From Escherichia coli (GTDB lineage Bacteria > Pseudomonadota > Gammaproteobacteria > Enterobacterales > Enterobacteriaceae): a stretch of 64,000 nucleotides of DNA. The position numbers were made by a program, and so were the translations under genes. A model generated the notes under the pieces. The model did not search any database, had not been told where the DNA came from, and saw only the letters and a program-made list of their open reading frames with translations. Below are positions 7,817-25,600 of the stretch, in pieces. Location of the stretch: the NCBI RefSeq assembly GCF_013315695.1, contig NZ_CP054354.1; one strand, given 5' to 3'. How positions within the stretch are numbered: position 1 is the stretch's first letter; each line of letters begins with the position of its first letter.

Positions 7817-9088
7817 TCATAACTGGGCTACTGGCAAATCTGTCCATCTGGTGGTATACGCAGGAGAAAGCATTTCCCGTTTCATTTGCCATTCAGGGGC
7901 GGTTCCTCGCCCCGCAAACCACACTTTCCCTTTTCCCGACTGGTTCAGTTCATCGAGTGTTTTCATTAACTTTTCACTGTTTTTACGGGGCTGGATTTCA
8001 TCAAATAATCCCGGCTGCGCTATACCCGATGGTGTGAAATCAGCCAGCATGACACCTGCCTTCATATAGCGGTACCCTTCACGCCAGACATGGTTTAACG
8101 CTCTGCATGCTGCGGCAATAATGTCCCGGCTGTCCTGTGTGGGCAATGGAAGCTTTTCCACAGCGGCATTGCTGTAACAGGGTTCTTTTACTGCAAAGGG
8201 GGATGTCCGTACAAATGTCGTCACCTGCCGGCAATACTGACGCTCCCCACGTAGTTTCTCTGCGGCCCGCTCTGCATACTGAACAACAGCCTGGTGCATG
8301 GCATCTTTGTCTGTGATTCGTTCACCAAAACTGCGACTACAGACAATCTGCTGTTTTGCCGGCGGTGCTTCTTCCAGAGATATGCAGGACTCGCCGTTGA
8401 GTTCGCGTACCGTACGCTCAAGAATGACGCTGAAGTTTTTCCGGATGAATGCCGTGTTAGCCTGCGCCAGCTGCAGTGCTGTGTTAATACCCAGCGCATT
8501 CAGCTTTTCCGTCAGTCTGCGTCCTACTCCCCAGACCTCACCAACTGGCTGCAACCCCAGTAGCTTCAAGATCCGATTACGGTTTTCTGCCGTCAGCGCG
8601 ACCACACCGGAAAACTGTGGCCATTGCTTTGTTGCCCACTGGGCACTTTTAGCCAGCGTTTTTGTAGGCGCAATGCCCACCCCCATGGTGAGTCCTGTCC
8701 AGCTCTTTACCTGTTCCCTGAGCTGATGACCAAAAATCTCCGGAGAGATGCAATGATTTATCCCCCGCAAATCAATGAACATTTCATCAATTGAGTAGGG
8801 CTCAACTGCGGGAGAAAGCGACTCCAGAACAGCCATAACCCGTTGGCTCATGCTGTGGTACAGCGCATAATTGCTGGAAAATACATGTATTTTCTTCTCC
8901 AGGCGCATTTGTCTCACCTGAAACCAGGGCTGCCCCATTCTGATGCCAAGGGCTTTTGCCTCCGGGCTGCGCGCGATCACACAGCCATCGTTATTGCTGA
9001 GTACGATGACCGGTTCGTTGCGAAGGTCCGGGCGGAAAACTTTTTCACATGAGGCGTAGAAACTGTTGATATCAGCCAGTGCAAACAT
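7817..9088 (-). CDS. impB: Error-prone Y-family DNA polymerase subunit, UmuC homologue (ImpB)
   Basis: 423 aa, N-terminus MFALADINSFYASCE...VIVLSNNDGCVIARS typical of UmuC/MucB/ImpB; start overlaps impA stop. Confidence 0.95.
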   Translation of the reverse strand: MFALADINSFYASCEKVFRPDLRNEPVIVLSNNDGCVIARSPEAKALGIRMGQPWFQVRQMRLEKKIHVFSSNYALYHSMSQRVMAVLESLSPAVEPYSIDEMFIDLRGINHCISPEIFGHQLREQVKSWTGLTMGVGIAPTKTLAKSAQWATKQWPQFSGVVALTAENRNRILKLLGLQPVGEVWGVGRRLTEKLNALGINTALQLAQANTAFIRKNFSVILERTVRELNGESCISLEEAPPAKQQIVCSRSFGERITDKDAMHQAVVQYAERAAEKLRGERQYCRQVTTFVRTSPFAVKEPCYSNAAVEKLPLPTQDSRDIIAAACRALNHVWREGYRYMKAGVMLADFTPSGIAQPGLFDEIQPRKNSEKLMKTLDELNQSGKGKVWFAGRGTAPEWQMKREMLSPAYTTRWTDLPVAQL

Positions 9089-9525
9089 CAGCGTAACTCC
9101 CGCGTCCTGTGTATCACGTGAGTGACAACACCAAAAATACAGATGTTTTCCGGATACAGTGTGCGGAACTCCGGGCTGTCTGAAACCGGCTCCAGTGCCG
9201 GGCGTGGGCGCAACAGCAGTCGTTTGACGGTGGACTCACCGTCGATCTCAGCGATAACGATGTCCCCGTGTTGTGGTTTTTCGGCCCTGTCCACTACCAG
9301 CAGATCACCATTCTGCACGCCAGCCTGGTTCATCGATTCACCGCTGGCGCGCAGAAAGAAGGTGGCTGCAGGTCTGCTGATGCAATAGCTGTTCAGATCC
9401 AGTTCCTGCTCAGCATAATCAGTGGCAGGCGAAGGAAAACCGGCCTGGCAACGATCGGCAAACAACGGTCGCACGTAACTGTCATCGCCTGAAGGGTCAG
9501 CCGGACGGTGATAAACGGTACTCAT
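9088..9525 (-). CDS. impA: UmuD homologue (ImpA), LexA-like S24 peptidase
   Basis: 145 aa with the S24 self-cleavage region (GESMNQAGVQNGDLLVVDR) and Lys in VKRL; overlaps impC stop. Confidence 0.9.
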   Translation of the reverse strand: MSTVYHRPADPSGDDSYVRPLFADRCQAGFPSPATDYAEQELDLNSYCISRPAATFFLRASGESMNQAGVQNGDLLVVDRAEKPQHGDIVIAEIDGESTVKRLLLRPRPALEPVSDSPEFRTLYPENICIFGVVTHVIHRTRELR

Positions 9526-9770
9526 GCTGCAGGCAGCCAGCTGTCGTCCTGCCAGATTTCTTCCAGCAGAGACAGGATACGTTCTTTATCCTTGTCGTTG
9601 CGGGCTCCTGTGACAGATACAGACGGGGCGCTGCCCTGGTCTATACGCAGCCAGATTTCCGGGTAGTGTGGTTTCAGACGTTGTTCGATTTCATTCTGTA
9701 GCGCCTGAAGTGTGCCTGATTTGAGGTTTTTTGTGCTCTGGCGGTCGAAAAGAATTTCAATGCGGATCAT
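9522..9770 (-). CDS. impC: ImpC, small first gene of the impCAB operon
   Basis: 82 aa from ATG at 9770 (MIRIEILFDRQ...), GGAG RBS; ORF track extends it to 9941 but upstream codons lack an RBS and overlap the LexA box. Confidence 0.7.
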   Translation of the reverse strand: MIRIEILFDRQSTKNLKSGTLQALQNEIEQRLKPHYPEIWLRIDQGSAPSVSVTGARNDKDKERILSLLEEIWQDDSWLPAA

Positions 9771-9794
9771 GTTCTCATCTCCCTTTTCTTTATG

Positions 9795-9810
9795 CTGTAT
9801 GTTTATACAG
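9795..9810 (-). promoter_or_regulatory. LexA (SOS) box CTGT-N8-ACAG upstream of impC
   Basis: ctgtatgtttatacag at 9795-9810, 25 bp upstream of the impC start. Confidence 0.75.
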
Positions 9811-10164
9811 TATTCTAATAACTGAATCCGCACACAGTCAAATGTCATTGTTGTGACTAAAAAACGCTCAATTCTCTGAGTGTGTGGCTGTATGCCTGCT
9901 GTGGGCTGCTGTGTCCAGCTTATCCACAGCATTTTGTGCACGGTTCTGTGGACAAAATACCTGGTTACCCAGGCCGTGCCGGCACGTTAACCGGGCTGCA
10001 TCCGATGCAAGTGTGTCGCTGTCGCCGGCCTCCTCACCCGGTCACGTTTCGTCGTTCCTCCTCCACGCGCTGCGGCTTCGGGGCCGCACCTGCATTCGTA
10101 TGCGGTCGCCCGGTAACAGGTGCGGCACGGCCTGATGGAGGCCGCATGTGAGAGGAGAATTCCC

Positions 10165-11091
10165 ATGCCAAACTGGTGCTCGAATCGTATGTATTTTTCT
10201 GGTGAACCGGCACAGATCGCTGAGATTAAACGACTGGCCAGCGGTGCAGTCACACCGCTTTATCGCCGCGCTACAAATGAAGGTATTCAGCTGTTTCTGG
10301 CCGGAAGTGCCGGACTTCTGCAGATCACTGAAAATATCCGCTCTGAGCAGTGCCCCGGAGTGACGGCTGCCGGACGTGGTGCTGTATCACCGGAAAATAT
10401 CGCGTTCACCCGCTGGCTGACACACCTGCAGAACGGTGTACTGCTGGATGAGCAAAACTGCCTGATGCTGCATGAACTCTGGCTGCAGAGCGGTACTGGA
10501 CAGCGTCGCTGGGAAGAGTTACCGGATGATGTCAGGGAAACTATCACTGTGCATTTCACCGCAAAAAGAGGTGACTGGTGTGACATCTGGGGTAACGAGG
10601 ATGTATCGGTGTGGTGGAACCGTCTGTGTGACAACGTACTGCCGGAAAAAACCATGCCGTTTGACCTGCTGACGGTTTTGCCGACCCGCCTGGATATTGA
10701 AGTGAATGGCTTTAACGGCGGTGTTCTGAACGGTGTTCCTTCTGCATATCACTGGTATACAGAACGGTATGGCGTGAAGTGGCCTTGTGGGTATGACCTG
10801 AATATCAGCAGTCAGGGGGAAAACTTCATTCAGGTAGATTTCGACACGCCGTGGTGTCAGCCGGAAAGCGACGTTGTTGCAGAATTAAGCCGCCGTTTCG
10901 GCTGCACGCTGGAGCACTGGTACGCCGAACAGGGCTGCAATTTCTGTGGCTGGCAGTTGTATGAGCGCGGAGAGCTCGTTGATGTGCTGTGGGGGGAACT
11001 GGAATGGTCTTCCCCGACAGATGATGATGAGCTGCCGGAAGTCACCGGACCTGCGTGGATAATCGACAATGTGGCGCATTATGGCGGATGA
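10165..11091 (+). CDS. Conserved hypothetical leading-region protein (~308 aa)
   Basis: ATG at 10165 follows GAGGAG (10152-10157); ORF track start 10120 has no RBS; Trp/Cys-rich. Confidence 0.6.
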   Translation: MPNWCSNRMYFSGEPAQIAEIKRLASGAVTPLYRRATNEGIQLFLAGSAGLLQITENIRSEQCPGVTAAGRGAVSPENIAFTRWLTHLQNGVLLDEQNCLMLHELWLQSGTGQRRWEELPDDVRETITVHFTAKRGDWCDIWGNEDVSVWWNRLCDNVLPEKTMPFDLLTVLPTRLDIEVNGFNGGVLNGVPSAYHWYTERYGVKWPCGYDLNISSQGENFIQVDFDTPWCQPESDVVAELSRRFGCTLEHWYAEQGCNFCGWQLYERGELVDVLWGELEWSSPTDDDELPEVTGPAWIIDNVAHYGG

Positions 11092-11103
11092 AGTATGACG
11101 GAG

Positions 11104-11130
11104 ACGGGCGGGCAACCGCCCGTTTCTTTT
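11104..11130 (+). terminator. Putative rho-independent terminator
   Basis: Stem acgggcgg / ccgcccgt with loop gcaa, followed by ttcttttcc. Confidence 0.4.
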
Positions 11131-11475
11131 CCGACAAAGGATGTCGCCGTGCTCCTCTTTTTACTGCGCCGGCTGACGCGGCGCGGCATAAACGCTGCCT
11201 GTGGTCAGTGTCCCGCGTCCGGCCGGGCACGGGACGGGCGCTTTTACCGCTCCCGGCTGGCGTCGGTGACAGTGTACGCCAGCCCGTCGCCCTTTTCTGA
11301 TGAACGCCCTTCAAGCCGCTTTCGCGGCATAGCCTTGCCGTCAGAAAGACGACGGCTGCGGTATTCCACGGTCGGCCTGACCCGTTACCGGACGCGGTGA
11401 ACAGCCCACAGGCAGCGGGGAACGGGCACCACAGGGGTGCCCTCCCGGTGCCCTCTGTAAGAGAAGGAGTTTGGT

Positions 11476-13700: not shown

Positions 13701-14040
13701 AGGATGTCGCCGCAGGCTCCGCTTTACCCGGCCATGCGGGGCATGGCCTTGTGGGTTTTCAGTTATGTGGCCTCAGCGCCGTGTGCGGGCTGTGCCGTGC
13801 CTCCATCGTAGCCGGGCTTCTGCGGGCGGGTTGCAAGGTAAGGTGAACCGCTGCGGTCACCCGGTCCCTCCTTCCCGTCTGCCGTGATTTTCCGGTCGTT
13901 CACCCGCTCAGATTTCGCGGTCTCACCCTTCAACTCCCGTCAGCCGTGCGCGTCAGGCTGCGGCTTCCCTTGCGCCCTTGCAACCCTGCAGGCCCGGCAA
14001 AGATGGAGGCACGGCACCGCCCGGTGTCGCGGAATATGTG
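13701..14040. repeat. GC-rich ~340-bp non-coding element, family A copy 1, immediately upstream of klcA
   Basis: Near-identical to 20650-20992; contains palindromes such as gccatgcggggcatggc; no supported ORF. Confidence 0.7.
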
Positions 14041-15142: not shown

Positions 15143-15342
15143 TACAGGGGCAGGCGGTGGAGGCCGCCTGTCAGCCCGCGCGAAAACCCCTGGCAGGCTG
15201 ACGCCTGCCGGAAACGCGGGGTGCAGCGCCTGCGGCGCTGCCGGCCCGGCTTTCCGGTCAGAAGGTAGTGTATGGCTGTATGCAGGGAACAGGAGTGATA
15301 TTCCGTGACACTGTCACCGTTTCTGGCTGTCTTTTATTGCGC

Positions 15343-15905
15343 CCACTTCGGCTCCCGGCTGCCTGGCGGCATCCGGTCGTCAGGCCCGACTCCGACGGGC
15401 AGCTGCTGGCGCACCCGCCAGTCTCCGCCGAACCCGCTGGCGCGGTTTCGGGCTGCCGCTACGGTCCGATGCGTGAAAACCCGGGCTTGCAGCGACCGTT
15501 CCGGTCGCGCCGCCCCTGTCGCGCCGTGACCTGCGCTCCCTGCACACCTGACGGTGTGTGAGGAAACTGCGCCTGATGGCGCAGCAGTCCTCCCTCCTGC
15601 CGCCCCCCCTGCGGCCTGTTTCCCCGCTGTGGACTTTCCGGGGGGCAGACGTAACCCCCTCCCGTTCCATCTGTCCAGGGTGAGATGCACCGGCCACAAA
15701 ATTTTTAGCCATGAACCCGGCAAAAAATTTTGCGTCCGCCCCCGGACAGCTGCCCCGTGAGGCGGTAAACGGGCCCCCATCGGAAAGGTCCACTGCGGGG
15801 AGAAACCCCTGTGAAGTGGACGGCAGGAGGAGCTTTCGCTCCTCTGAAGGGGCACATGAACGTCCCGTCGCCGGTATCCGGTTTATCTCACATCTTTCAG
15901 TCAGG
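15343..15905. repeat. GC-rich ~560-bp non-coding element, family B copy 1 (Frpo/ssi-like), upstream of ssb
   Basis: Repeated at 21690-22240 and partially at 25230-25600; hairpins such as ctgcgcc-tgat-ggcgcag; ORFs here lie on both strands without RBS. Confidence 0.65.
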
Positions 15906-20649: not shown

Positions 20650-20992
20650 AGGACGTCGCCGCCGGCTCCGCTTTTACCCGGCCATGCGGGGCATGGCCTT
20701 GTGGGTTTTCAGTTATGTGGCCGCCGTGTCGTGTGCGGGCTGTGCCGTGCCTCCATCGTAGCCGGGCTTCTGCGGGCGGGATGCAAGGTAAGATGAACCG
20801 CTGCGGTCACCCGGTCCCTCCTTCCCGTCTGCCGTGATTTTCCGGTCGTTCACCCGCTCAGATTTCGCGGTCTCACCCTCCAACTCCCGCCAGCCGTGTG
20901 CGTCAGGCTGCGGCTTCCCTTGCGCCCTTGCATCCCTGCAGGCCCGGCAAAGATGGAGGCACGGCACCGCCCGGTGTCGCAGAACATGTGAC
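20650..20992. repeat. GC-rich ~340-bp non-coding element, family A copy 2, immediately upstream of ardA
   Basis: Near-identical to 13701-14040 over ~330 bp. Confidence 0.7.
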
Positions 20993-21008: not shown

Positions 21009-21509
21009 ATGTCTGTTGTTGCACCTGCTGTATACGTTGGAACCTGGCACAAATACAACTGTGGAAGCATCGCTGGCCGCTGGTTTGACCTGACAACGTT
21101 TGATGATGAACGCGACTTTTTCGCCGCCTGCCGTGCCCTTCACCAGGATGAAACCGACCCGGAACTGATGTTTCAGGATTATGAGGGATTCCCGGGGAAT
21201 ATGGCCTCTGAATGCCATATCAACTGGGCCTGGGTTGAAGGCTTCCGCCAGGCGCGGGATGAAGGCTGCGAAGAGGCTTATCGTCTCTGGGTGGATGATA
21301 CCGGTGAGACGGATTTTGACAGCTTCCGCGATGCCTGGTGGGGCGAGGCTGACAGTGAGGAGGCTTTTGCGGTTGAGTTCGTCAGTGATACCGGCCTGCT
21401 GGCTGACGTGCCGGAGACGGTGGCGCTCTATTTTGACTATGAGGCGTATGCGCGGGATTTATTCCTGGACTCCTTCACCTTTATTGACGGTCATGTGTTC
21501 CGTCGGTGA
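21009..21509 (+). CDS. ardA: Antirestriction protein ArdA
   Basis: 166 aa from ATG at 21009 (GGAGG RBS 20996-21000); MSVVAPAVYVGTWHKYNCGSIAGRWFDLTTFDDE and very acidic C-terminal half typical of ArdA DNA mimics. Confidence 0.85.
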   Translation: MSVVAPAVYVGTWHKYNCGSIAGRWFDLTTFDDERDFFAACRALHQDETDPELMFQDYEGFPGNMASECHINWAWVEGFRQARDEGCEEAYRLWVDDTGETDFDSFRDAWWGEADSEEAFAVEFVSDTGLLADVPETVALYFDYEAYARDLFLDSFTFIDGHVFRR

Positions 21510-21689
21510 TTTACTCCCCGCTCCGGCGGGGGGATGGCCTGCCAGGCCCCCGGAAAACCCTGGCAGGCTTACGCCTGCCTGAAATACAGGAGGGCCGCGC
21601 CTGCGGCGCTACCCTTCCTGCCTGTCATAGTGTGAGGCATTTTTCTGTTTTGTCGTTTCTGTTGTTCTGACTCCCGGGGGCGGGGACAC

Positions 21690-22240
21690 CCTTCGGCTCC
21701 CGGCTGCCTGGCGGCATCCGGTCGTCAGGCCCGACTCCGACAGGCAGCTGCTGGCGCACCCGCCAGTCTCCGCCGAACCCGCTGGCGCGGTTTCGGGCTG
21801 CCGCTACGGTCCGATGTCTGAAAAACCAGGCTTGCAGCGACCGTTCCGGTCGCGCCGCCTCTGTCGCGCCGTGACCTGCGCTCCCTGCACACCTGACGGT
21901 GTGTAAGGAAACTGCGCCTGATGGCGCAGTTGTCTGCCCTTCCGCCGCCCCCCCTGCGGCCTGTTTCCCCGCTGTGGACTTTCCGGGGGCTGAAGCGGCC
22001 ACAACACGTTTCAGCCGTCCAGGGGAGAGATGTACCAGCCACAAAACTTTTTGCCGCAAGCGTCAAAAACTTTTGCGTCTGCCCCCGGACAACTGCCCCG
22101 TGCCGTGGCAGTCGCTGCCCCATCGGAAAGGTCCACTGCGGGGAGAAACCCCGAAGAAGTGGACGGCAGAAGGGGCTTTCGCCCCTCCGGGGGAGCAACC
22201 GGTCGGCCCGGCGACCTGATTCAGCAGAAGGAGACGTTTT
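21690..22240. repeat. GC-rich non-coding element, family B copy 2 (Frpo/ssi-like)
   Basis: Aligns with 15343-15905 along most of its length; ends at the RBS of the 22242 gene. Confidence 0.65.
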
Positions 22241-25229: not shown

Positions 25230-25600
25230 GTCGCGCCGGATGCAGCGCTCCCTGCACACCTTACGGTGTGTAAGGCCACTGCGCCTGATGGCGCAGCTGT
25301 CTCTGCCTGTCTGCCGCCGCACTGCGGCCTGTTCTCCGCAGACGGACTTTCCGGGGAACATACACGACCACATCCCGTTTCAGTTATCCAGGGGAGAGAT
25401 GTACCAGCCACAAAACTTTTTGCCGCAGGCGTCAAAAACTTTTGCGTCTGCCCCCGGACAACTGCCCCGTGACGTGGTGAGCATCCCCCGTCGGAAAGGT
25501 CCACTGCGGGGAAATCCCCGAAGACCCGGACGGCAGAAGGAGCTTCGCTCCTCCGGGAAATGACCTGGCTGACCCGGCAGTCGTGACGATGAGGAGACAA
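25230..25600. repeat. GC-rich non-coding element, family B copy 3 (partial, 3' ~370 bp)
   Basis: Aligns with the 3' part of 15343-15905 and 21690-22240; ends at the RBS of the 25605 gene. Confidence 0.6.

Follow-up and report, generated by a model that had tools for sequence, protein, structure and literature searches.

The minus strand of the window (the whole 64-kb stretch of Escherichia coli DNA that was analysed) carries the genes impC, impA and impB in that order, preceded by a stretch of regulatory signals and, beyond it, by genes on the plus strand. The features that matter for the following are listed by coordinate.

7817..9088, minus strand: impB, a UmuC-like Y-family DNA polymerase (Pfam IMS, IMS_C, DUF4113 and IMS_HHH)
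9088..9525, minus strand: impA, a UmuD-like S24 self-cleaving subunit (Peptidase_S24, E = 8e-24; UmuD 8gmt, E = 6e-35)
9522..9770, minus strand: impC CDS, 82 aa plus stop, DinI-like (ORF, Pfam DinI, alignment to 1ghh, IMPC_ECOLX / WP_000618110.1)
9771..9941, minus strand: on comparative evidence, a non-coding stretch inside the longest ORF, comprising 5' UTR, operator, promoter and upstream intergenic DNA
9779..9785, minus strand: Shine-Dalgarno sequence AAGGGAG, 8 nt before the ATG at 9770 (anti-SD duplex -8.4 kcal/mol)
9793..9812, minus strand: primary LexA (SOS) box TACTGTATAAACATACAGCA, with the CTGT-N8-ACAG core CTGTATAAACATACAG at 9795-9810
9812..9841, minus strand: predicted sigma-70 promoter, with -35 TTGACT at 9841-9836, an 18-nt spacer and -10 TAGAAT at 9817-9812
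9820..9839, minus strand: GACTGTGTGCGGATTCAGTT (CTG-N10-CAG), a weak LexA-like site and the second in this region, which overlaps the -35 hexamer and part of the promoter spacer
10120/10189-11091, plus strand: DUF1281 gene
from 11476, plus strand: methylase gene
from 15914, plus strand: ssb

Proteins and layout of the operon

ImpC matches the Pfam DinI family (PF06183) over residues 19-79 (E = 8e-18; 65 bits against a cut-off of 24.2), corresponding to profile positions 3-63 of 63, and the full DinI fold is present from residue 2. The protein is of equal length to E. coli DinI and aligns with it from end to end; by this likeness, ImpC would act on RecA filaments as DinI does. ImpA aligns to UmuD, with CQA-GFPSPA opposite VQC-GFPSPA and ASGESM opposite ASGDSM, and carries the TVKRL motif too (the criterion used was a cleavage-site motif together with the catalytic Ser and Lys). 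At the aligned position of the UmuD cleavage site, ImpA has Ala-Gly where UmuD has Cys-Gly. ImpB has UmuC-type domains. Because of what is established for UmuD'2C, ImpA is expected to activate itself by self-cleavage and then to make up, with ImpB, a pol V-like translesion polymerase.

Both gene junctions overlap: the impC stop and the impA start are contained in ATGA, and the impA stop and the impB start in TGATG. These overlapping stop and start codons suggest translational coupling, and the three genes are probably co-transcribed. In E. coli, dinI and umuDC are under LexA-box control as separate transcription units, whereas in the window the DinI-like gene heads the polymerase-gene operon. 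Operons of the impCAB type have also been studied on Shigella plasmids and on other I-complex plasmids.

The locus is the impCAB operon as described for the IncI1 plasmid TP110 (Lodwick, Owen & Strike 1990, as cited in PMC12211044 and PMC10286972) and for the I-complex in general: the 82-aa ImpC is identical, the genes follow the order impC-impA-impB with the same overlapping junctions, and the operon occupies the same position at the far end of the leading region, where its neighbours are a DUF1281 gene and a ParA gene. Over 751 nt, the window is 100% identical to its best DNA match, on the IncK2/Z plasmid NZ_CP024254.1 from E. coli ATCC 43886 (our loci L001 and L010), and several thousand I-complex and other plasmids are 95-99% identical to the window DNA. 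The ATCC 43886 plasmid carries the methylase-DUF1281-impCAB segment twice, at about 5-9.5 kb and at 101-105 kb. Two small differences, neither of substance, set the lineage of the window apart from the commonest IncI1 variant: its 5' UTR is longer by one T, and one T of the operator spacer is replaced by A. The SOS box of impCAB and the 82-aa ImpC are already known, and no new biology is implied by finding them here.

LexA operator and promoter

The initial annotation had placed a perfect CTGT-N8-ACAG box 25 bp upstream of the ATG at 9770. The coordinates bear this out: the core runs from 9810 to 9795, its last base lies 25 positions upstream of the A, and 24 nt separate the end of the core from the start codon. 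We regarded as a LexA operator a CTGT-N8-ACAG (CTG-N10-CAG) core within a 20-mer that resembles TACTG(TA)5CAGTA. The core CTGTATAAACATACAG is the sole CTGT-N8-ACAG in the window.

Such a core could be a chance match, in which case impCAB would lie outside LexA control here. Indeed, dinucleotide-preserving shuffles of the window contain the bare 16-nt pattern 1.01 times on average, and at least once in 70 of 100 cases. The case for an operator therefore rests on the full 20-mer, on the overlap with a promoter and on conservation, rather than on the 'perfect' core. The 20-mer TACTGTATAAACATACAGCA agrees with the consensus TACTGTATATATATACAGTA at 17 of 20 positions, and none of the 100 shuffles comes within these three mismatches. 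Scanning positions 9400-10300 for the sigma-70 consensus returned a single match, at 10 of 12 positions, which is the promoter listed above. As the LexA 20-mer begins at the final base of its -10 hexamer, the predicted transcription start near 9805 falls within the box.

Conservation points in the same direction. The CTGT and ACAG halves are invariant in the window and in five relatives (L001-L004 and L008); within the box the central spacer alone varies (ATAAAC, ATATAC or ATATGC), and the flanks vary as well. Two more distant homologues, on a Klebsiella IncFII plasmid (L006) and on a Salmonella arizonae plasmid (L007), have a DinI-like gene of about 80 aa with a LexA box 30-36 nt upstream of its start. 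These boxes are AACTGTACATCCATACAGTA at -30 in L006 and CACTGTATAAATAAACAGTA at -36 in L007. L006 has a umuD homologue and a Y-family polymerase gene downstream, as in impCAB, whereas L007 has no downstream umuD. Protein identity to the window is 48-50%, and these independent boxes and their flanks differ in sequence from those of the window.

The closest published system is the IncI1 plasmid pTF2. In a lexA mutant strain with hyper-induced SOS, ImpC of pTF2 was up 21-fold and ImpA 9-fold, and ImpB was likewise induced (PMC12211044). Two LexA sites were predicted there: box 1, TACTGTATATACATACAGCA, which is located at -21 relative to the short start and has a heterology index of 1.60, and box 2, AACTGAATCCACACACAGTC, with a borderline index of 13.49 (PMC12211044). 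The window has two predicted LexA sites at matching positions, but each is one base off its pTF2 counterpart, and the distance from box to ATG is 1 nt longer. Relative to the pTF2 box, box 1 of the window has one further spacer mismatch, T to A at position 10. As a variant one spacer base away has a published index of 1.60, the box of the window is itself expected to have a low heterology index (<15, in the model of Lewis et al.), and LexA probably binds this exact variant too. Taken with the shuffles, the promoter overlap and the independent boxes, the induction of a plasmid copy whose box differs by one base makes a chance match exceedingly improbable.

With the box read as an operator, regulation would proceed as follows. 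In the undamaged cell, a LexA dimer on the operator would block RNA polymerase. Upon DNA damage, RecA filaments would bring about self-cleavage of LexA, and the operon would be transcribed from its probable start near 9805. Translation from the ATG at 9770, behind AAGGGAG, would then yield the 82-aa DinI-like ImpC, followed by the UmuD-like ImpA and the UmuC-like ImpB. Forced overexpression of impCAB is toxic (PMC10286972), which is consistent with tight repression. Recognition of the LexA box both fixes the start of impC and marks the operon as SOS-regulated, a call that bears on stress-induced mutagenesis borne by resistance plasmids.

One relative departs from this pattern. On a K. pneumoniae IncFIB plasmid (L005, NZ_CP095256.1), unrelated sequence next to a ClbS/DfsB gene (…gggaagacccATATACATACAGCAAAAG…) stands, about 45 nt upstream of impC, in place of the entire promoter and of the left half-site of the LexA box. 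Judged from its sequence, this impC-umuD copy has lost its SOS operator.

The start codon of impC and the longer reading frame

In the ORF list, impC has its ATG at 9770-9768 and its stop at 9524-9522 on the minus strand, and the longest version of this ORF, from GTG 9941, would encode 139 aa. The initial annotation held that this longer frame reads through the SOS box and that the 82-aa ImpC is the better model. We agree on both counts. The frame from GTG 9941 spans 9812..9793, and the exact 82-aa sequence is that of IMPC_ECOLX / WP_000618110.1, so the database form of ImpC is the short one and not one with an upstream start. This comparison with published ImpC was made through the IMPC_ECOLX name on the exact sequence and through secondary citations.

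Public records overwhelmingly carry the short protein. It is named 'Protein ImpC ... RepID=IMPC_ECOLX' in UniRef and also goes by 'DinI-like family protein', and it occurs on at least 1000 contigs; every inspected RefSeq record that encodes an identical ImpC has the 249-nt CDS (WP_000618110.1). Long forms are rare in the protein collection, with a 136-aa form on 17 contigs and a 139-aa form in one record. The depositor annotation of LC567071, for example, has a 136-aa 'hypothetical protein'.

The main alternative is that the long ORF, whether from GTG 9941 (139 aa) or from ATG 9932 (136 aa), encodes a genuine N-terminally extended ImpC in this lineage. The few public annotations of 136- or 139-aa proteins are in its favour, as is an upstream frame that has no stop for 72 codons in the window, L001 and L002. 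The codon usage of the 57-codon extension is also slightly positive, with a log-odds score of +0.18 bits per codon in frame, similar to that of impA. This score is positive largely because the other frames contain stops; being weakly positive, it means that coding of the extension is not excluded by the codon-usage test.

The signals for translation and the protein alignments argue against an extended ImpC. The four upstream in-frame starts (GTG 9941, ATG 9932, ATG 9848 and GTG 9833) have no Shine-Dalgarno sequence, with anti-SD duplex energies of -2.8 kcal/mol or weaker. Their positions, at the -35 hexamer or further upstream, place all four outside the predicted transcript, and the promoter and operator would have to serve as coding sequence for the extension. 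The 57 added residues have no Pfam domain match. Residues 2-78 of DinI (PDB 1ghh, 81 aa) align to residues 60-136 of the long ORF, which are residues 3-79 of ImpC, so that the N-terminus of DinI coincides with the Met at 9770.

Comparison of relatives reveals how the long frame arose. The window, L001 and L002 share an additional T near 9792, after the operator and ahead of the Shine-Dalgarno sequence (CAGCATAAAG vs CAGCAAAAG), and the 139-codon ORF exists because of this 1-nt insertion in the 5' UTR. In L003, L004 and L008, which have no long ORF, a TGA at -69, which forms part of the -35 hexamer TTGACT, interrupts the upstream frame, and yet their impC core is identical to that of the window at 249 of 249 nt. 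Across the relatives, all differences (1-6 substitutions and one indel) fall within the 171-nt 'extension', with none in the 249-nt core.

The insertion is also a minority state. A 90-nt query covering the operator, UTR and start retrieved 2480 plasmid records, of which 173 (~7%) match at >=99% identity and represent the variant of the window. A further 2104 match at 95-99%, and among the matches listed in this band the span is one base shorter. Likewise, a tblastn search with the 139-aa ORF aligned in two pieces over 416 nt, not 417, in most records. The variant lineage includes IncK2/Z and some IncI-gamma/K1 plasmids. Beyond this group, the L006 and L007 proteins align from residue 57/58 of the long ORF only, the former from its own residue 1, and both genes have an in-frame stop upstream of the start, at -33 and -27, respectively.

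Given that an extended ImpC needs an insertion that few plasmids have, and that plasmids with an identical core have a TGA instead, we consider it extremely unlikely. Translation from an intermediate codon, ATG 9848 (108 aa) or GTG 9833 (103 aa), is vanishingly improbable: both codons are in frame in the variant of the window, but they have no Shine-Dalgarno sequence (duplex energies >=0), would not be on the predicted transcript given their positions at the -35 hexamer or further upstream, and in the common variant are out of frame or behind the TGA at -69.

The stretch 9771-9941 on the minus strand is thus almost certainly the regulatory region of a plasmid SOS mutagenesis operon, impC-impA-impB, in which the 82-aa ImpC starts at 9770. 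On the comparative evidence, the 139-codon ORF is spurious, a product of longest-ORF calling. The value of this result is one of annotation hygiene, as longest-ORF calling engulfs the impCAB operator and promoter in plasmids that have the 1-nt insertion in the 5' UTR, and over-extended 136-139-aa 'ImpC' or 'hypothetical' proteins have been passed on in a few public records. It is very unlikely that the linked changes of this lineage (T to A in the operator, one added nucleotide) alter LexA affinity or 5'-UTR function, or that rare extended ImpC is made from read-through transcripts. If LexA affinity or 5'-UTR function were altered, expression of the toxic impCAB operon would shift in the basal or the induced state.

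The leading region and the element upstream of impC

The genes of the leading region, which also include a ParB-like gene, psiB, psiA and ardA, are all on the plus strand, towards nikA (27107) and nikB (27451), and the first unit to run the other way is impCAB. In other plasmids of the I-complex and in F plasmids, the leading genes are transcribed from the transferred strand. If this holds for the window, imp mRNA would be in the sense of the incoming strand, and thus could form only after synthesis of the complementary strand.

Between impC and the DUF1281 gene lies a structured intergenic element of 270 bp (9880-10150), which is about 96% identical to an unannotated segment found in thousands of plasmids without impCAB. 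In one inspected IncF record, its counterpart is located between sopB and a DUF1281 gene. The element contains a 27-nt imperfect inverted repeat with arms at 9970-9996 and 10108-10134, and folded as single-stranded DNA it reaches -64.6 kcal/mol (z = -5.8). An Rfam search of 9000-11000 with E up to 1 gave no match, and there is no second copy of the element within the window.

We considered whether this element might be a 'class 3' ssDNA promoter like that of the M.EcoGIX operon of pESBL (PMC12672017), but do not adopt this reading. In the sliding fold it reaches -71.9 kcal/mol, short of the -75 kcal/mol cut-off of that paper; a much stronger hairpin (-94.2 kcal/mol, 11151-11450) is present directly 5' of the methylase gene; and the 9400-10300 scan found no sigma-70 consensus on the plus strand.

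Six operons of the IncI1 plasmid pESBL are reported to be driven by ssDNA promoters (PMC12672017), and the hairpins found in the window 5' of leading-region genes match this arrangement. In 300-nt sliding folds of minus-strand ssDNA, the mean across the window is -45.3 kcal/mol (sd 11.5). Very stable hairpins of -82 to -99.6 kcal/mol occur at 11151-11450, 13726-14025, 15151-15800, 20676-20975, 21501-22175 and 25251-25550, several of them just 5' of the methylase gene, a KlcA-like antirestriction gene, ssb, ardA and a DUF4942 gene.

Two further gene models in this region overlap structured DNA. The DUF1281 gene is over-extended too: its longest ORF starts at GTG 10120 (323 aa) and enters the structured intergenic element. 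The RefSeq protein, with a start equivalent to position 10189, is 300 aa long, and residue 45 is the first in the Pfam match. RefSeq also has a 103-aa Arg-rich 'hypothetical protein' at ~11088-11400 on the plus strand, in the gap that separates the DUF1281 and methylase genes. This ORF coincides with the hairpin at 11151-11450, which is among the strongest, and may have been called in error on top of a structured ssDNA promoter.
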